Sequence record: PV467748.1
Strand: one strand, 5' to 3'
DNA length: 64,000 nucleotides
DNA from: a phage
This document shows positions 1 to 59,900 of this stretch, one piece after another. Numbering within the stretch: position 1 is the stretch's first letter; each line of letters opens with the position of its first letter. The notes under the pieces were generated by a model that ran no database searches, had not been told where the DNA came from, and was given only the letters and a program-made list of their open reading frames with translations. A program made the translations under genes and the position numbers.

Positions 1-254
1 ATAAAGGTTCCAACGAAATGGACGCAGGTATCTACTATGCTCCGTACGTTGCACTGACTCCGCTGCGTGGTTCCGATCCGAAGAACTTCCAACCGGTAAT
101 GGGCTTCAAAACTCGTTACGGTATCGGTATTAACCCGTTCGCTGACCCAGCTGCTCAGGCGCCTACCAAACGTATTCAGAATGGTATGCCTGACATCGTT
201 AACAGCCTCGGTCTGAATGGTTACTTCCGTCGCGTATATGTTAAAGGTATCTAA
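1..254 (+). CDS. 23: Major capsid protein gp23, C-terminal fragment (gene continues upstream of window)
   Basis: ORF 18..254 is open in frame to the window start; tail ...YYAPYVALTPLRGSDPKNFQPVMGFKTRYGIGINPFAD resembles T4 gp23 C-terminus; followed by gene 24 as in T4. Confidence 0.8.
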   Translation, partial: KGSNEMDAGIYYAPYVALTPLRGSDPKNFQPVMGFKTRYGIGINPFADPAAQAPTKRIQNGMPDIVNSLGLNGYFRRVYVKGI

Positions 255-1954: not shown

Positions 1955-3234
1955 TGTCTAAGATTGTAGACCTAATTAAAGAATCCACATTGACGGCTGC
2001 CAACTCGGTTGGCCGTCCTGCTCTTCTTTCATACACCCAAGCAACTAATAAACGAATCTTTAAAGCCTTAGTTGCTGAACAAAAAACAAGTCAACCTGTT
2101 GCCGCTCTGTACGGGGTTCGTGTACTTAATCCTGATGACAAAATGACTTATCTTGGTGGCGCTACATTTGCAGGCCAGATTGGTATGTCGGAACGTGAAA
2201 ATATTCCTGAATTTACCGATTCGTCTACAGCTTATGCAGCCGGCGATATGTTCCAGTTTGAAAGTGTAGTGTTTAAAGTTCTGGAAGCATCTCCTTTCGC
2301 CGGAACCACAGAAACTGACCTCGGTGAAGTTATTTCTGAAGCAGTGGCTGCTGGGCATATTCGTATGGTATCAGATGCGGCTATTACTTCTAAATTCGAA
2401 CAGGGCCATCCTGAAATTGCTGAAGCAGGCTTCCGTATTGATAAGTGGCAGACTGAAGTTAAATCACGTAAACTGAAAACTTCATTGACCGTCGAATTAG
2501 CCCAAGATCTAGAATCAAACGGGTTTAATGCTCCTAATTTCGTTGAAAACCTGCTAGGCATTCAAATGGCAGAAGAAATTAATAAGGACGTATTACAGTC
2601 ATTAATTACGGTGAGTTCTCGTTTTAAAGTCCAGGGTGTTTCCGAAAAGGGTGTATTGGACCTTACCAACCCACGTTACGATAATGCTCAGGACCGTGCT
2701 CGTACATTGTATTATTACATGTGTGAGATGAACTCTGCCGTACAACGCCAGACTTCTTTCGCTGGGACTTATGCAGTAGCTAGTTCTCGTTGTGCCGCTA
2801 TTCTTGCCGCATCTGGTTGGGTTGAGAAAAAGGAAGACCAAGACGAACTGGCTTACGGTATATTAAAAAATGGCCTGCCTCTTTATGCCGATATGAATAG
2901 TCCGTGTGATTATGTTATTGTTGGTGTAAATGCTCAGATGGGTGAAGGACAGACGGTCGCATCTTTATATTATGCGCCTTATACGGAAGGTTTGAATGAG
3001 GTTGATGAGGAAGGGGATACTTCAGTAGGTGAATTTAAGGTTATTGTTGACCCGGAAAGCTTACAACCTACAGTAGCATTGCTTGCTCGTTATGCATTGA
3101 CTGCAAACCCTTATACCGTCGCTAAGGACGATAAAGAAGCCCGCATTATTGATGGTTCTGATATGGACAAAATGGCTAATCAAAGTCAATTGAGTTCTTA
3201 TCTCGGTGTAAAATTACCACCTTTAGAAAAATAA
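1954..3234 (+). CDS. Second, diverged gp24-like capsid vertex protein paralog
   Basis: 426 aa, collinear with the upstream gp24 (shared LQSLITVS, YAPYTEGL, SLQP, ANPYTVAKDDKEAR blocks) but diverged; start overlaps upstream stop (TAATG). Confidence 0.8.
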   Translation: MSKIVDLIKESTLTAANSVGRPALLSYTQATNKRIFKALVAEQKTSQPVAALYGVRVLNPDDKMTYLGGATFAGQIGMSERENIPEFTDSSTAYAAGDMFQFESVVFKVLEASPFAGTTETDLGEVISEAVAAGHIRMVSDAAITSKFEQGHPEIAEAGFRIDKWQTEVKSRKLKTSLTVELAQDLESNGFNAPNFVENLLGIQMAEEINKDVLQSLITVSSRFKVQGVSEKGVLDLTNPRYDNAQDRARTLYYYMCEMNSAVQRQTSFAGTYAVASSRCAAILAASGWVEKKEDQDELAYGILKNGLPLYADMNSPCDYVIVGVNAQMGEGQTVASLYYAPYTEGLNEVDEEGDTSVGEFKVIVDPESLQPTVALLARYALTANPYTVAKDDKEARIIDGSDMDKMANQSQLSSYLGVKLPPLEK

Positions 3235-3260: not shown

Positions 3261-4268
3261 TTATTTGGATACTAGGTCAATCCATACTGCTCGTAGGGTA
3301 TCTTTTACACACTCAACGAGCTGCTTTTTAACTTCAACAGGATTTTCAGCATCAGTTAATTCTAATTCTTCACGGGCAGCTTCTTCTAAGATATCTTGGA
3401 CTGTCAAGCCCATTACCTTTCCAAAATCCTTCGGCGATACTTCACCAATCTTACTGATGACGTTGTTAATGCGGTTAACAGTCACATAATCAGTGAATTG
3501 CCACATCAAGTCCATATCGTCTTGGGATAAAACCACTGCAACTTTAATAGGCTTATCAGACTTTTTCTTCTCGCTGAATTTAGAGTTCTTACATTTAATC
3601 GCTACACGATTTCCGTTTGGAAGCCAGATAGGAACATCAGGTTTCAGTACAAAGCCTTCGGCGGTGAATACTTTACCTTCTACCTTAGGAATAAAATCTG
3701 TTGAGTTCGCAATAGTTAGGCCAGCATTATCCACTGCAAAATTATAATCAGGAACAACAGAATCAAAATCATTAGGAAGTTTAATAAGGTCTTCAAAGCT
3801 ACCAGTGGCCAGACATGGCGCAACCTTAAACTTATGGATAATACAGAAGGCTTCCATCAATGTATCGGATAGAACAGATTCTGAGCCATCTTCCTTAGTA
3901 ACTCGGATATCGAACACATAAAAGTCTTTATCACCGTAATCCACATTCTTCTGGATACCCGGCCCAGCGAATTCGCCGTAAATTTGATATGACTGATAAT
4001 TAATCGATTCAATTAGATGTTGAACGGATTTAATAGAATCAGCATAATTCTTTAAAACAATTTCATAACCAAAGAAATCTTCAGCAGGGAGGATAGGGCC
4101 AGTGCGCTTGGCGCATGTGACTGCGTCACGTTCTATGATTAAACTAAAGTTGGTCCCATGAATCTTCTCACGTGCCACCCATTCACCACCAGTCAAACCG
4201 TTAGTACGGAGTTTTTCGATAAACTTACTGTTGTAGTGGTTTTCGAGACTGCTATATTTCTTGAACAT
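3261..4268 (-). CDS. rnlB: RNA ligase 2 (Rnl2)
   Basis: 335 aa; nucleotidyltransferase motif I EKIHGTN with Lys at position 35 as in T4 Rnl2; T4 position after gene 24. Confidence 0.85.
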
Positions 4269-54480: not shown

Positions 54481-54496
54481 AGGGGCTTCGGCCCCT
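54481..54496 (+). promoter_or_regulatory. Intercistronic hairpin aggggc-UUCG-gcccct between genes 37 and 38
   Basis: 6 bp stem with UUCG loop immediately upstream of GGAGG RBS of gene 38. Confidence 0.45.
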
Positions 54497-54507
54497 TGGA
54501 GGTTTAT

Positions 54508-55305
54508 ATGGCAGTAGCAGGACCGTGGATAGGAACTTCTGCATTAGCTAATACAGGACAAAATTGGATGGGCGGCGCTGCCCAACGATTGAGAATGGGC
54601 GCCCCGTTTTGGATGAGTAATATGAACGGTCGGTCTGTTGAAGTAATTCATACCATAACAGCAAACCATAACTTTAACGGGCAATGGTTCCGCGACCGCT
54701 GTTTTGAAGCAGGCAGCGCACCTATTGTGTTTAATATCACAGGCGATATAGTATCTTACGACCGTAATGTTCCATTGTTCTTTATGAATGCGGATACTCC
54801 AAACGAATACGTTGTTTTGAATATTCATGGTGGGGTTCATATGTGGGGCCGAGGCGGCCACGGTGGGTGGACCCATTCAGGTGGCGACGGTAACGGTCAA
54901 TGGGGTGGTGATTGTATAGTCAACCACATAGGTCATAGACTACGTATTTGGAACTATGGGGTTATCTGTGGTGGTGGCGGTGGCGGTGGTGGCATTGCGT
55001 ATCGTCCTCACTCAGGTGCTAACTGGCAAGATATCGGTGGTGGTGGTGGACGTCCATTTGGTCCTGGTGGCGGTGGTGGATACTCCGGCGGTGGTGCTTC
55101 TTATGAAAGCCCCGGCGGTGGATACAATTATGGTAACGCCCACTCAGGTCATGGCGGTGATGCTGGCGCCGCAGGCCAGAACGCATGGAATGATGGTGGT
55201 AAAGTTCTTAAAGTTGGGGCCGGCGGCGGTTCTGGGGCTGCTGTCGCCGGTTCTGCTCCTGCATGGGGAGCGACAGGTACGATTTACGGGCCTTGGCTTA
55301 GTTAA
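54508..55305 (+). CDS. 38: T2-type gp38 receptor-recognising adhesin (glycine-rich motifs)
   Basis: Start at Met5 after GGAGG RBS; conserved N-terminal attachment domain ([27 protein letters not shown]), poly-Gly motifs [22 protein letters not shown] alternating with variable segments. Confidence 0.85.
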
Positions 55306-55336: not shown

Positions 55337-55990
55337 ATGGAACCAAAAGTAGGATTTTCATTATCAGACCTACTTTTTGGACTTCTTGATAGAATTTTTA
55401 AAGATACTTCTTCCGGGAAAGTAGTTTTTTCCCGGGTCCTAGTCGTGATATTATTGTTCTTTATGGCACTGGTTTGGTATAAAGGCGAGTATATTCTAAA
55501 CTTTTACAAAGAGACAACTTATGCCTCTTATACTGAAATGATTAGACAAGACCAGGACAATAGATTTAAAATTGCGGCTATCGAGCAGCTCCGAATAGTG
55601 CATTCTTCTTCAGGCGCAGACTTCACAGCAATATATTCTTTTAGACCAACCAACATGAATTATTTTGTGGATATGGTTGCTTACGAGGGTAAATTACCGG
55701 AAACGGTAGACGCAAAAAATACGGGAGGGTTTCCAATTGACAAAACGTCAGTAGAATATATGGCGGGAGTTAACGGGAACTATTTTGAATCAAGTACAGA
55801 AACTGTATTCCTTCCTACAAAGAAGAAAACACAATTCACGTATATGTTTTCATGCCCGTTTTTTAATTTGGATAACGTCTACGCCGGCTCGATATCGTTG
55901 TACTGGTATGATATCAAACCGGATTTAGGATTTCCTAGACTTTCGTCTATGTGCGGTCAAGCCGGAAGGACATTAGGTCGAACTCGTTAA
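55337..55990 (+). CDS. t: Holin T
   Basis: 217 aa; single N-terminal TMD (VLVVILLFFMALVWY) and large periplasmic domain; collinear with recalled T4 T. Confidence 0.9.
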   Translation: MEPKVGFSLSDLLFGLLDRIFKDTSSGKVVFSRVLVVILLFFMALVWYKGEYILNFYKETTYASYTEMIRQDQDNRFKIAAIEQLRIVHSSSGADFTAIYSFRPTNMNYFVDMVAYEGKLPETVDAKNTGGFPIDKTSVEYMAGVNGNYFESSTETVFLPTKKKTQFTYMFSCPFFNLDNVYAGSISLYWYDIKPDLGFPRLSSMCGQAGRTLGRTR

Positions 55991-56262
55991 AAATTGGAGG
56001 TATACATCATTAGATAGCGGTGTATATCTTCATACCCTTCATTAAATTGCTCAATAAGAGTGTCACGTTCATCTTCAGTTAAAGACTTAAAGAGTTTATT
56101 AAAAGATAGACCGTTAAGTTCCTTTCCATGTTCATTACGAATACCCAACTCATTCAAAAAGGCAATAAACTCATCACGGCGTTGCATTATGTCTTCACAA
56201 TCCGTTTTAATCAAAATGGAAACAATAGTAGCAATTTCGGAAACGATTTCAATTTTAGTCAT
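55987..56262 (-). CDS. asiA: AsiA anti-sigma70 factor
   Basis: 91 aa; ...IVSILIK...FIAFLNE...EQFNEGYEDIHRYLMMYT parallels recalled T4 AsiA. Confidence 0.85.
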   Translation of the reverse strand: MTKIEIVSEIATIVSILIKTDCEDIMQRRDEFIAFLNELGIRNEHGKELNGLSFNKLFKSLTEDERDTLIEQFNEGYEDIHRYLMMYTSNF

Positions 56263-56301
56263 AATATTCTCTTCAATTCAGTACGACATTATCTGATAAG
56301 G

Positions 56302-56333
56302 CTATAATAACATATCCTTAGTAATTGTAAACA
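56302..56333 (-). promoter_or_regulatory. T4-type early promoter (minus) for asiA
   Basis: rc reads GTTTACAattactaaggatatgtTATTAT. Confidence 0.5.
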
Positions 56334-56476
56334 TGTTCTTCGTTCTTTTTAACATATTCCTGATACATTTCTTCAATAGGTTCCTGGAACCTAAAATCGG
56401 CTCCTAGGAATTCCTCAAAGCACTCCTGCTCACGCGTACGCATACCTGTTACGGTATTCTCTAAGTTATGACTCAT
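56318..56476 (-). CDS. Small acidic protein, 52 aa (not in ORF track)
   Basis: Hand-translated MSHNLENTVTGMRTREQECFEEFLGADFRFQEPIEEMYQEYVKKNEEHVYNY. Confidence 0.3.
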   Translation of the reverse strand: MSHNLENTVTGMRTREQECFEEFLGADFRFQEPIEEMYQEYVKKNEEHVYNY

Positions 56477-56565
56477 ATCCTTTACCCTTATGTTTCTGCT
56501 TACGCTTAGACTCTTTAAAATTTTTCTTCTTATCTTTATGGACCGAAGCCTTATTGAAATCGTGC

Positions 56566-56850
56566 TTAGCTACCAGATTGTTCATCACGTAATTTCCTTA
56601 ATTGATATTCAAGAGAGCTAATAATTTCTTTATTAGTCGCAATATACATATCACGTAGGAACGGCTTCAACCCTTCCATATTCCCATGGATTGTCTTGGA
56701 ACTAATATTCTTTATATATTCATGGTCTAATGCATCCCAAGCTGGTTGGTTGACATAAGTTCCCCAATTATCTTCCACCGTGACATTCAGACGTTTGATA
56801 TGATTGATATGGGTTTCGATTGCATCAATTTGGAGTTGTTTAAGGTTCAT
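56566..56850 (-). CDS. Hypothetical protein (arn region), 94 aa
   Basis: ORF between asiA and motA. Confidence 0.45.
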   Translation of the reverse strand: MNLKQLQIDAIETHINHIKRLNVTVEDNWGTYVNQPAWDALDHEYIKNISSKTIHGNMEGLKPFLRDMYIATNKEIISSLEYQLRKLRDEQSGS

Positions 56851-57338
56851 TAATAAAGGTCCTCAGAGTAAAGTTCTTTTTCACTACCACCACGTTCAAT
56901 ACGAACCTGATTAGCATATGTTGCAATTACCATTGCTTCTTCACGAGTCCAATAGTTTGAATATTGGTCAATAAAACCTTGGTCATCGCCGCAAACATGC
57001 TCTGACACAAGTTTATCACTTACTTGGTCAAGCACTTCTGCCATATCTTTAGAATAATGGCGAGCTCCTGGAATAACTAGAGTCCCACCGTCTTTTAACT
57101 TAAAACGGTTGGCCGCGCATACAATTCGACGTTGGTATTTTTCATTGTTGTTCCAATAGGCAATCTGCCAACAGATTTCTGGGACTTCATTCAAAACATC
57201 CTCTTCTGTATATTCAGTATAATCGCCATAGGCCTGTAATTTAGCTGCTAGACTTTCAGGCGTCTCGCGAGAAAGAGCTTTATCTAACAAGGCCATTCGG
57301 TCTTTGAAGGATAATTCTTTACCTTTTAATGGATTCAT
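56850..57338 (-). CDS. Hypothetical protein (arn.x region), 162 aa from Met4
   Basis: ORF; conserved-looking core [27 protein letters not shown]. Confidence 0.45.
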
Positions 57339-57664
57339 TTGAACCATCCTTTAACACGTTGCCAGAGGCTTTTCTGTTGGGCTTTATTAACACCAATTGA
57401 ACGAATAACCGGCTGTGATTCCTGGTATTCTTTGTAGTCGGCTTTATAGACTTCATAAGCGGCTGGAACAAAGGTGCTGATTGCTGCCATAAAGTTCTTA
57501 CGAATTCCCATAGAAGCTTCAGAACCGCCACGGATGATTAAGTATTTACCTGCTTTAATCTTAACAATAGTGCCGAGATAAGCGCCATGGTACCAAATAT
57601 CCCAACCTTCTTGAGTAGGTTCTGCACAACGACGAAGTTCATTAACAATATTCAGCTTGTTCAT
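57335..57664 (-). CDS. Hypothetical protein (arn.x region), 109 aa
   Basis: ORF immediately downstream of motA. Confidence 0.45.
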
Positions 57665-57682
57665 AATAATTTCCTCAGTCAG

Positions 57683-58315
57683 TTAAATTGCGTTGGTTAC
57701 GGTTTTGATAACTTCAGATGATACGTTTTGGAAGTCGATATAAGTATTCTTACCGCCAGTCTTAATCTTAACATCAAGGTTCAAGGAAGTAAACACTTGT
57801 TTTTCTTTATCAGTCATATTATAACCGAAAATACGCATCATTCCGTCACGACGGACTTCGATTTGACGAATACCATTGGTACGTTTAGCGAATCGAACTT
57901 CAAGATTGCTACGGTTTTCGGCAATTTCACGAATCTCGATACGGTCTTCCAACAAAGATTTAACTTCATCAGCCAATACCACCATTTCAGGAGTAACACC
58001 ACGTGAGCTACGCGTTTTACGTTTTTCCAACATCTCTGGAGCATTTTCAGAAGCGAACAGGTCGGCAGCTTTTTGAACTAGGTCCATTGCTTCACCTGTA
58101 GCCACCAGTCCATCACCAGATTTTTCGATGAATCCTTTCTTAATCAATACACCGATGTTAGAGTTAACCACTGCTGCAGTGAATTGCTCACTCAGGGCTT
58201 CACGGACTTCGCCTGAAGTGATGAAGTTATTCTTGATGATATGTACTAAGATAGAAGCGGTTTTTTCATTCAGGACGTCTTCAGAAGCTTTGATGATGTA
58301 AGTAATTTTAGACAT
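57683..58315 (-). CDS. motA: MotA middle-transcription activator
   Basis: 210 aa; MSKITYIIKASEDVLNEKTASIL..., NSNIGVLIKKGFIEKSGDGL, RTNGIRQIEV..MRIFGY parallel recalled T4 MotA. Confidence 0.9.
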   Translation of the reverse strand: MSKITYIIKASEDVLNEKTASILVHIIKNNFITSGEVREALSEQFTAAVVNSNIGVLIKKGFIEKSGDGLVATGEAMDLVQKAADLFASENAPEMLEKRKTRSSRGVTPEMVVLADEVKSLLEDRIEIREIAENRSNLEVRFAKRTNGIRQIEVRRDGMMRIFGYNMTDKEKQVFTSLNLDVKIKTGGKNTYIDFQNVSSEVIKTVTNAI

Positions 58316-58348
58316 TTTAATCTCCGATAACCGTTTATTTGATAGGTC

Positions 58349-58380
58349 TTATAGTATCATGTTTAAAGCAGAAGTAAACA
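58349..58380 (-). promoter_or_regulatory. T4-type early promoter (minus) for motA
   Basis: rc reads GTTTACttctgctttaaacatgaTACTAT. Confidence 0.5.
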
Positions 58381-58403
58381 CCTTTTTGCACTAAACCAAA
58401 AAA

Positions 58404-58419
58404 GGAACCCGAAGGTTCC
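58404..58419 (-). terminator. Hairpin ggaacc-UUCG-gguucc plus U-run downstream of gene 52 operon
   Basis: 6 bp stem, UUCG loop, followed by UUUUUUGG on minus-strand RNA. Confidence 0.55.
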
Positions 58420-58524
58420 TTACTTTTTAAAGTGGGCTGCTATTAAACCTATAGCTAAGCCTGTCGCCAGGCCTAGGATAACAACAAAGATGCAGAGTAA
58501 AAAGAACTCGACTCCAAGGCTCAT
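58420..58524 (-). CDS. Small hydrophobic peptide, 34 aa (not in ORF track)
   Basis: Hand-translated MSLGVEFFLLCIFVVILGLATGLAIGLIAAHFKK; ATG overlaps gene 52 stop (ATGA). Confidence 0.35.
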   Translation of the reverse strand: MSLGVEFFLLCIFVVILGLATGLAIGLIAAHFKK

Positions 58525-59900
58525 AGAGCCTCCAAATCTTTAACATACTCAGTTACAACATCAGTGGTTTTCCAATATTGATGCTCTTCTTTCTTAGCCT
58601 TGGCTTCTAAGGCCAATTTCTTAGCTTCATCTGATGTGATATGGAAAATGTTCATGGCTACTAGTTTATCAGCATACTCGCCGTAGACTTTATTACTAGC
58701 CAATTCTTCGGTTAAAACCTTACGGGTCTTACCTTGGATAACCACTACGCCATCAATAACATCTTTGATAAATGTGGCTTTAGCCAATGCCAGTTTGAAA
58801 GCTTCTTCAGTTTCGATGATTTTACCATCAATACGTTTCTGTACAAAGGTCTTACGGACCTCAACGAAATCACGAATCAGTTCAACTGCATCTTCGTAAA
58901 CCTTAAGTTTACCTTTCTCATTAATGACAGTCAGGTTTTGTGAACGGCGTTCGATTAACCCGAAGTCCTTCATGATTTTTTCGTGCTTCTTATTTTCTTC
59001 GGTAGGCAATTCATATTCTTTACGAATCTTAACCTTGAAGCCGAAACCGTTCTCGTCACAGTCGTCATCATACGTGATATACCCTTTGTCTTCCAGAGGG
59101 TCTAATATCTTAGCCACGTACGTTTCACGGTCGTATTTGTATGGGATTTCCGTGATATGCATTTGGGTTCGAGATGTGAACTTATAGGTTCCACGAATCT
59201 CATAACTACCAGGTTCAATCTCAACAACATCACCGCGGAATTCAGGATAAGCCACTTTAGGTTTGGTTACGCGTTTTTTCTGAAGAACTTGCAATACAGC
59301 TTTCTTAACAGAATCAAAACTATGAGGAAGAATATTAGTTGCATAACCAGTTGCAATACCGGAAACACCATTAAGAAGAACAGTAGGAATAATAGGCAGA
59401 TAAAAAGCCGGTGGCTTATGTTCAACATCCGCATGAACCGGAGCATATTCTGTGTCCTTATACACCTTAGCAAAGTTACTTCCAATACGAGCAAAAATAT
59501 AACGAGAGGCCGCGGCCTTTTGAACCAAACGAGAACCAAAGTTACCTTGGCCATCCAACAGTGGGAAATTGTTGTTCCATGTGTTGGCCATAAGTGCACC
59601 AGCTTCCTGAGCAGAACCTTCGCCATGGTGGTATCCAAGGTCGGCTACGCCGCCAGCGATAGAAGCGAGTTTGTGGAATTTTTCTTTATTACCACGAGCC
59701 ATATCAAGACAACGAGCAACTACAAAACGTTGTACGGGTTTAAAGCCATCAATCATATTCGGAATGGCTCGGTTTTCGACAGTATACATTGCATAAGCCA
59801 ATGCTTCATTGTCGATAATACTTTTTAAGTCACGACGAGTAAAAGTATCATCGTAAACATCTAAAGCCTGTTTAAAAAGGGTATCAATTACATCAGCCAT
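58521..59900 (-). CDS. 52: DNA topoisomerase II medium subunit gp52
   Basis: 459 aa; GyrA/ParC-like N-terminus (AIPNMIDGFKPVQRFV) with catalytic Tyr region. Confidence 0.9.
   Translation of the reverse strand: MADVIDTLFKQALDVYDDTFTRRDLKSIIDNEALAYAMYTVENRAIPNMIDGFKPVQRFVVARCLDMARGNKEKFHKLASIAGGVADLGYHHGEGSAQEAGALMANTWNNNFPLLDGQGNFGSRLVQKAAASRYIFARIGSNFAKVYKDTEYAPVHADVEHKPPAFYLPIIPTVLLNGVSGIATGYATNILPHSFDSVKKAVLQVLQKKRVTKPKVAYPEFRGDVVEIEPGSYEIRGTYKFTSRTQMHITEIPYKYDRETYVAKILDPLEDKGYITYDDDCDENGFGFKVKIRKEYELPTEENKKHEKIMKDFGLIERRSQNLTVINEKGKLKVYEDAVELIRDFVEVRKTFVQKRIDGKIIETEEAFKLALAKATFIKDVIDGVVVIQGKTRKVLTEELASNKVYGEYADKLVAMNIFHITSDEAKKLALEAKAKKEEHQYWKTTDVVTEYVKDLEAL

Follow-up and report, generated by a model that had tools for sequence, protein, structure and literature searches.

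Between the genes for the transcription activator MotA and the anti-sigma-70 factor AsiA, phage T4 carries a cluster of small early genes that owes its name to Arn, a DNA mimic directed against McrBC and the sole characterised anti-restriction protein of the locus, which in T4 and T2 belongs to the same transcription unit as the arn.x genes. The latter have been 'hypothetical' for thirty years, and a 2026 study drew attention to the operon as a probable counter-defence unit. A preprint of June 2026 describes Arn.1-4 as proteins of unknown function and goes no further than to conjecture counter-defence; full-text literature searches by the name of the gene or UniProt entry and by Pfam accession gave nothing else relevant on these proteins. 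The other described system that matters here is PD-T4-9, the CmdTAC toxin-antitoxin-chaperone defence system, whose component B, originally the middle 'unknown protein', was later named the CmdA antitoxin and described as a pair of N-terminal helices followed by an unstructured chaperone-addiction tail (ChAD) that ends in LAA, a ClpXP degron. The locus discussed below lies in PV467748.1, a stretch of phage DNA of 64,000 nucleotides (the window, whose positions serve as coordinates throughout), which groups with Dhakaviruses in megablast searches (96% identity to phage fDHCT2 and 95% to JS10). On balance, we find it probable that its motA-asiA interval is a minimal Dhakavirus version of the T4 cluster, with an Arn.3 built from two modules and a role in early host takeover. 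What is new is that Arn.3 is predicted to consist of two modules, that the T4_Y16D (hereafter Y16D) family forming its core is large and structurally isolated, that there is a link to CmdA and that a universal 39-aa peptide had been overlooked.

The motA-asiA gene cluster and its relatives

Seven co-oriented genes occupy the minus strand from 55987 to 58315. The first, motA (57683-58315, 210 aa; Pfam MotA_activ 5.7e-39 and MotCF 1.9e-13, PHROG 1345 4.8e-89, 50% identity to T4 MotA), is the leading gene of a transcription unit that extends into the interval, and the last, asiA (55987-56262, 91 aa; Pfam AsiA 2.4e-22, 52% identity to T4 AsiA), marks its downstream boundary. The five closely packed open reading frames (ORFs) between them, of 109, 162, 94, 39 and 52 aa, correspond to arn.4 (57335-57664; PHROG 1594 2.8e-53), arn.3 (56850-57338; PHROG 839 8.4e-73), arn.2 (56566-56850; PHROG 1844 2.5e-39), a gene for a highly basic peptide of the DUF7230 family, MNNLVAKHDFNKASVHKDKKKNFKESKRKQKHKGKGYES (56466-56585; PHROG 1359 1.1e-22), and one for an acidic, AsiA.1-like protein (56318-56476; PHROG 5245 1.9e-33). 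All are preceded, 5-10 nt upstream, by a Shine-Dalgarno-like motif, their junctions abut or overlap (arn.4 and arn.3 share an ATGA overlap), they match PHROG families with E-values from 1e-22 to 8e-73 and they are annotated in fDHCT2, JS10 and NC-G, which together argues that they are real genes, genuine and conserved. Their starts are as given above, although arn.3 begins three codons earlier, at 57347, in the ORF list (homologues and GenBank annotations begin with MNPLKG) and the DUF7230 peptide would have 40 aa if the GTG at 56588 were taken as its start. The initial annotation had listed ORFs of 94, 162 and 109 aa, and possible small ones of 52 aa (acidic) and about 39 aa (basic), as 'three to five uncharacterised genes' of this interval, and all of them are indeed found there, on the minus strand. 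There are five, and they are indeed uncharacterised, although they are not new.

Orthologues were assigned by BLASTP of the interval ORFs against the annotated proteins of the T4 locus. The order of the genes is the same in the T4, JS10, fDHCT2 and NC-G annotations. As in T4, arn.3 is located downstream of motA, with arn.4 before it and arn.2 after it, and T4 Arn.3 is 75% identical to the 162-aa protein (E 5e-83) and has all conserved motifs in common with it, the C-terminal LYSEDLY included. By these comparisons the five genes are ordinary orthologues of known families (arn.4, arn.3, arn.2, the DUF7230 peptide and an asiA.1-like gene), and the T4 motA-asiA early gene cluster is present here in its Dhakavirus form, in a minimal configuration. 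The earlier proposal that this is the T4 arn/arn.x neighbourhood thus holds by synteny and by BLASTP against T4, except that Arn itself is missing: T4 Arn, arn.1 and an acidic 93-aa ORF of JS10 have no homologue in the 64-kb window (tblastn, E≤0.1), and none of the five interval proteins is similar to Arn in BLASTP. Homologues of Arn.2, Arn.3 and Arn.4 nevertheless bear the label 'anti-restriction nuclease' in GenBank, UniRef and other records, a label that has been transferred from the 'arn.N' gene names and is not based on evidence.

Gene content varies between relatives in a comparison across T-even genomes of the kind that had been suggested (JS10, NC-G, fDHCT2 and loci from IMG/VR). JS10 has two genes that are absent from the window, a 116-aa ORF between arn.4 and arn.3 and the acidic 93-aa ORF in the position of arn (1544-1894 and 2750-3031 of its locus, L001), while NC-G has only the one between arn.4 and arn.3 (1563-1901 of locus L003); since these relatives carry extra genes, the interval is variable and the window phage has its minimal form. 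The 93-aa protein of JS10, which ends in ..GLEDYID, may be a distant analogue of Arn, albeit without BLAST similarity. An additional ORF, of 51 aa, also lies between arn.4 and arn.3 in Bas35 (phage WilhelmHis, a Tequatrovirus; 1841-1996 of locus L012). Among 79 IMG/VR loci, 43 have motA or asiA in the flank, and in all 43 of these the order is motA-arn.4-arn.3-...-DUF7230-...-asiA. Arn.4, Arn.3 and DUF7230 are present in every one (one locus being cut off upstream of arn.3), whereas Arn.2 is missing from 8, Arn is found in only 7 and both Arn.1 and AsiA.1 are variable as well. We infer that the first three are fixed companions of MotA/AsiA, and that Arn.2, Arn.1, Arn and AsiA.1 make up a variable accessory part.

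Arn.4, which follows motA directly, is found in every T4-like locus examined. Its homologues form 48 clusters, all of about 109 aa, 63-89% identical and with a precomputed Pfam PF26821 annotation, and those that have names come from T-even-type phages. The 76% identity to T4 Arn.4 was obtained over the 68 aa annotated in T4, where the 41 codons upstream of the annotated start are intact, in frame and conserved (about 3335-3460 of locus L004, NC_000866 up to 162959), with ATA where the window phage and others have a normal ATG. It is because of this ATA that the T4 annotation of Arn.4 covers a fragment of 68 aa, and either the start is non-canonical or the start codon has been mutated in the reference strain.

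The DUF7230 peptide scores 49.8 bits against a Pfam gathering threshold of 27 (E 3.6e-13) and is likewise found in every T4-like locus examined, where it remains 64-97% identical even when MotA is only 41-70% identical. No other element of the interval is as constant, and yet the T4 reference annotation omits it: an unannotated 39-aa orthologue, MNNLVAKHNFNKASVHKDKKKAFKESNRKQKHKGKVYDY, about 85% identical to the window peptide, lies on the minus strand of NC_000866 at 161580-161699 (2081-2200 of L004), overlapping both arn.1, at its 3' end, and the start of arn. A possible resemblance to the ribosome-rescue peptide ArfA was rejected since BLASTP gave E 0.3 over 9 residues, there was no sequence match in the PDB and a comparison with 68 aligned enterobacterial ArfA sequences in hhalign gave a probability of 1%.

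The constancy of these three genes raises the question of whether Arn.4, Arn.3 and DUF7230 might be auxiliary parts of the early-to-middle expression switch, co-evolving with MotA/AsiA and acting for example on RNA polymerase, mRNA or ribosomes, with no part in counter-defence. This would account for their presence in all 43 loci while Arn, Arn.1, Arn.2 and AsiA.1 come and go, for the narrow distribution of Arn.4, for a DUF7230 that is better conserved than MotA and for the extreme basicity of this peptide, which is like that of nucleic-acid or ribosome binders. However, the Y16D core of Arn.3 also occurs in many phages that have no MotA/AsiA nearby, no homology to transcription or translation factors was found, the comparison with ArfA failed every test and co-occurrence may simply reflect linkage, so that we regard this explanation as rather unlikely.

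The two remaining genes belong to the variable part. Arn.2 has 38% identity to T4 Arn.2 (E 1.6e-19) and a conserved position after arn.3. The gene for the 52-aa protein adjoins asiA, as asiA.1 does in T4, but only the first 24 residues of the protein align with T4 AsiA.1 (46%, E 1.7e-5), the C-terminal halves being different; its match to PHROG 5245 is strong and that to PHROG 3762 weak and confined to the N-terminus, and it is 96% identical to EpJS10_0245 of JS10. PADLOC, NCBIfam and PDB sequence searches returned nothing significant for Arn.4, Arn.2, the DUF7230 peptide or the 52-aa protein.

The two modules of Arn.3

Judged from its sequence and its predicted structure, Arn.3 is a protein of two modules, CmdA-like N-terminal helices that have been swapped between phages (residues 9-40, minus strand 57219-57314) and a Y16D core (residues about 52-162, minus strand 56853-57185). 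An AlphaFold2 model built from a 50-sequence alignment has a mean predicted local distance difference test score (pLDDT) of 87.5 overall and 95-98 in the core, and consists of two N-terminal helices (residues 11-23 and 27-36) followed by a small compact alpha/beta domain.

The core is by far the more widespread of the two. Homologues of Arn.3, which fell into 378 clusters, carry a precomputed Pfam PF26092 annotation (T4_Y16D; T4 Arn.3 itself is UniProt Y16D_BPT4). When 1.84 billion representative proteins were searched with a profile, 4,575 clusters matched at E≤1e-3 and 1,720 at E≤1e-10. The conserved unit corresponds to the C-terminal ~90-110 residues and is C-terminal in every one of the 150 best matches listed. 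Many members are stand-alone proteins of 83-100 aa. In others the domain is preceded by as many as about 340 additional residues, unrelated to one another, and ten long members (225-434 aa) gave no family match in a Pfam scan. The motif of the 162-aa protein that had been flagged in the initial annotation as possibly enzymatic or nucleotide-binding falls in the most conserved part of the family, both in the 50-sequence alignment and in one of 267 sequences, and the core does have the look of an enzyme or a ligand-binding site. Over the 267 sequences, V73, A75, A76, R93, H94, Q120, G121, F122, D124, R132, A135, A139, Q144, L156, S158, E159, L161 and Y162 are 93-100% conserved, giving an invariant pattern of R-H, QGFxDQ, R, Q and SExLY-COOH, and the protein ends exactly at the conserved tyrosine in 245/266 members. 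These invariant polar residues and the exact SE-x-L-Y-COOH tail suggest that Y16D is a small enzyme or a specific ligand-binding pocket.

The fold offers no further clue. The best Foldseek match in the PDB had E 0.04 and a probability of 0.2, sequence and profile searches of the PDB with Arn.3 gave no match, and Y16D therefore has no solved structural relative. Against BFVD, Foldseek returned uncharacterised phage proteins and marginal matches to the 'large polyvalent protein associated domain' (E 2e-3 to 6e-2). Nor was a conserved neighbour of stand-alone Y16D genes found in 36 non-T4 phage loci, the most that recurred being MazG-like, metallophosphoesterase and NADAR-like genes, in 4-7/36. 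Small stand-alone proteins that are widespread in phages, have conserved polar residues compatible with a binding pocket and lack a conserved partner gene could, by analogy with Tad1, Tad2 and Acb2, be non-enzymatic sponges for a small immune signalling molecule or nucleotide. We consider this quite unlikely for Y16D, however, since it has no structural similarity to solved proteins, including the known sponges as far as these are in the PDB, and its invariant His, Asp and Glu and exact C-terminus fit catalysis equally well.

The N-terminal module came to light through a match of residues 9-40 to positions 2-33 of the 77 of the PADLOC profile PD-T4-9_B (E 2e-9). The match was repeated with five other proteins that bear the module (E 2e-12 to 7e-8; e.g. 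2e-12 for P0104, 1e-9 for P0013 and 2.5e-10 for P0001), while T4 Arn.3 reached only 0.0026, or 16 bits as compared to 36 bits for the consensus-type module of the window protein. The module occurs once in the window. In searches for a CmdA sequence, the 52-aa N-terminus found only 2 fragments among proteins, tblastn against plasmids gave nothing significant and blastn against E. coli genomes gave no match. The module is also present in unrelated proteins of phages outside the T-even group, namely internally in the 320-aa gp63 of Klebsiella phage Geezett (E 3e-9; 2189-3151 of locus L008), next to helicase and exonuclease genes, and N-terminally in a protein of Vibrio phage 277E43-1 (E 7e-8; 1992-2420 of locus L009), where it precedes a different, Cys-rich domain, so that the two-helix element behaves as a mobile protein module. 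P0001, a 203-aa Arn.3 homologue from a 170.6-kb contig, has a Dhakavirus-type and a T4-type module in tandem before a single Y16D core. Other Arn.3 homologues start with a leader of the type MIPMELxWDG, which also heads the separate ORF beside arn.3 in JS10 and NC-G: the leader of this 112-116-aa ORF, MIPMELNWDGEG, is the one fused to the Y16D core in homologues from Serratia and Pectobacterium phages. Finally, Arn.3 of Bas36 has a core that is 97% identical to that of T4 Arn.3 and an N-terminus that is 45% identical, and Arn.3 of Bas35 is closer to the Dhakavirus allele than to T4 (82% N-terminal and 94% core identity to the window protein). The discordance of N-terminal and core identities between phages indicates that the N-module is exchanged by recombination independently of the core.

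An ambitious extension of these observations is that Arn.3 represents a class of modular phage effectors, in which a swappable two-helix adaptor of the CmdA type delivers a small catalytic fold not seen before, Y16D, to a host toxin or its product. Were this very unlikely scenario true, such an effector could for example reverse or block immunity of the ADP-ribosylation type, and the N-modules would set which host systems are countered. According to a separate proposal, Arn.3 would be a dedicated CmdTAC inhibitor whose CmdA-like helices bind CmdT, the mRNA ADP-ribosyltransferase, as a stable antitoxin mimic without ChAD tail and ClpXP degron, while Y16D might also remove ADP-ribose. In accord with this, strong matches to PD-T4-9_B (2e-9 to 2e-12) are obtained with consensus-type modules, and T4, whose own module matches poorly, is restricted by CmdTAC.

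Arn.3 of seven BASEL phages (Bas35-41) and of T4 was therefore compared with published efficiencies of plating (EOP) on cmdTAC cells. Both BASEL T-even phages that escape, Bas35 (EOP 0.85) and Bas38 (0.32), have modules that are not of the T4 type. Bas37 (6e-7), Bas39 (6e-6), Bas40 and Bas41 (both described as restricted) and T4 (restricted at least 1e3-fold in ECOR22) all have the T4 type, so that CmdTAC is escaped by 2/3 phages with a non-T4 module and by 0/5 with the T4 type (Fisher p about 0.11, n=8, phylogenetically confounded). The module type fails as a predictor of escape in the case of Bas36, which has a non-T4, consensus module and is fully restricted (EOP 5e-6). This counter-example and the finding that escape mutants of T4 map to alt.-3, not arn.3, leave a simple neutralisation of CmdTAC unsupported, and with so few phages and with the module also present on unrelated proteins outside the T-even group, a dedicated inhibitor is highly improbable.

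Expression signals and flanking genes

An early-type promoter, GTTTAC-N17-TACTAT, can be read directly from the sequence upstream of motA (minus strand, 58351-58379). A second one, GTTTAC-N17-TATTAT, lies upstream of asiA and overlaps the end of the 52-aa gene (minus strand, 56304-56332); here a promoter scan reported TTTACA-16-TATTAT (10/12 matches, with TG) and the GTTTAC was read from the sequence. Both fit what we take to be the T4 early-promoter consensus. The coding strand has no terminator-like site from motA to asiA, and the promoter upstream of motA probably drives motA and the five genes downstream. A promoter of the MotA-box type was not found directly upstream of arn.4, the one match, inside arn.3 (57010-57034), being at chance level, and no Rfam RNA family was detected in 55800-58700.

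A regulatory device described in T2 is absent here. In that phage, arn.2 has a pairing site for ArcZ at its 3' end and the intergenic region beyond it contains an RNase E site, and the ArcZ-complementary CCAGGGAAAT is found at the 3' end of T4 arn.2 (L004, about 2389). Unlike its T4/T2 counterparts, arn.2 of the window phage lacks the pairing site, since CCAGGGAAAT is absent from its 3' end (56566-56600) and from the window, and it lacks the downstream intergenic region, because it overlaps the next gene. The genes arn.1 and arn are missing as well.

Beyond the cluster, the gene for the T holin (55337-55990, identified with Pfam and PHROGs) is convergent with asiA. A glycine-rich 269-aa ORF upstream of it (54496-55305) resembles, in composition and position only, the T2-type gp38 tail-fibre adhesin and not the T4-type gp38 chaperone. 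On the other side, a 34-aa hydrophobic ORF (58420-58524) in the position of T4 motA.1 is followed by a strong terminator-like hairpin at 58402-58421 that immediately precedes the motA promoter (ORF and hairpin both within 58402-58524).

Possible role of the cluster and likeness to known systems

The reading that we favour, a minimal Dhakavirus cluster with a two-module Arn.3, can be put together as follows. The five genes would be co-transcribed early from the promoter upstream of motA. Y16D would be the working part of Arn.3, acting without a dedicated phage partner and presumably on a host molecule, and the variable N-terminal module would serve as a handle for targeting or binding. Taken together, the genes of the cluster would most likely serve early host takeover, with counter-defence being one possibility. 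The suggestion that these genes are candidates for counter-defence remains plausible, although the one case put to the test, Arn.3 against CmdTAC, met with a counter-example. That no function could be assigned from sequence also proved right, as Pfam, PHROG, PADLOC and NCBIfam gave none; profile searches and structure prediction yielded families and a confident model of Arn.3, but the model of Arn.4 (pLDDT 60) is of low confidence and too poor for a fold search.

Several points weigh against this reading. No homology found in searches of sequence libraries connects a defined activity with any of the five proteins. The residues of Y16D may point to an enzyme or a ligand binder, yet they do so without any fold match. 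The similarity to CmdA spans only about 30 residues and is seen through a family profile. Co-transcription from the motA promoter is read from the nucleotide sequence, while the T2 preprint describes arn.4-arn as a middle transcript. Finally, that Arn.4, Arn.3 and DUF7230 are universally present speaks against an arms-race role that is purely accessory, and their invariable association with motA and asiA is at least equally compatible with a core early function.

The locus offers concrete starting points. The genes of the window phage are themselves ordinary, but an adaptor that Arn.3 has in common with a host antitoxin, and that is shuffled between phages, provides experimenters with defined constructs and mutants. 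Y16D is very widespread, structurally unmatched and has sharply defined invariant residues, which are testable leads. The constant 39-aa basic peptide that T4 annotation has overlooked is a third object for such work.

In comparison with known systems, the cluster differs from that of T4 and T2 in lacking the protein after which it is named. The likeness to CmdA is confined to the two N-terminal helices. Positions 34-77 of the profile are unmatched in Arn.3, which has no ChAD tail or LAA degron and ends in SEDLY, and whose remaining two-thirds are an unrelated folded domain. The genetic context is different too, CmdA being encoded in an operon together with its toxin, an ADP-ribosyltransferase, and a SecB-like chaperone, whereas the neighbours of arn.3 in the window are arn.4 and arn.2. 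For the Y16D core itself, and despite a fold unlike any solved structure and matches to polyvalent proteins that are marginal, the closest parallels would be the Tad1, Tad2 and Acb2 sponges and the domains of large polyvalent proteins, which it resembles in its size, its phage-wide distribution and its stand-alone occurrence.

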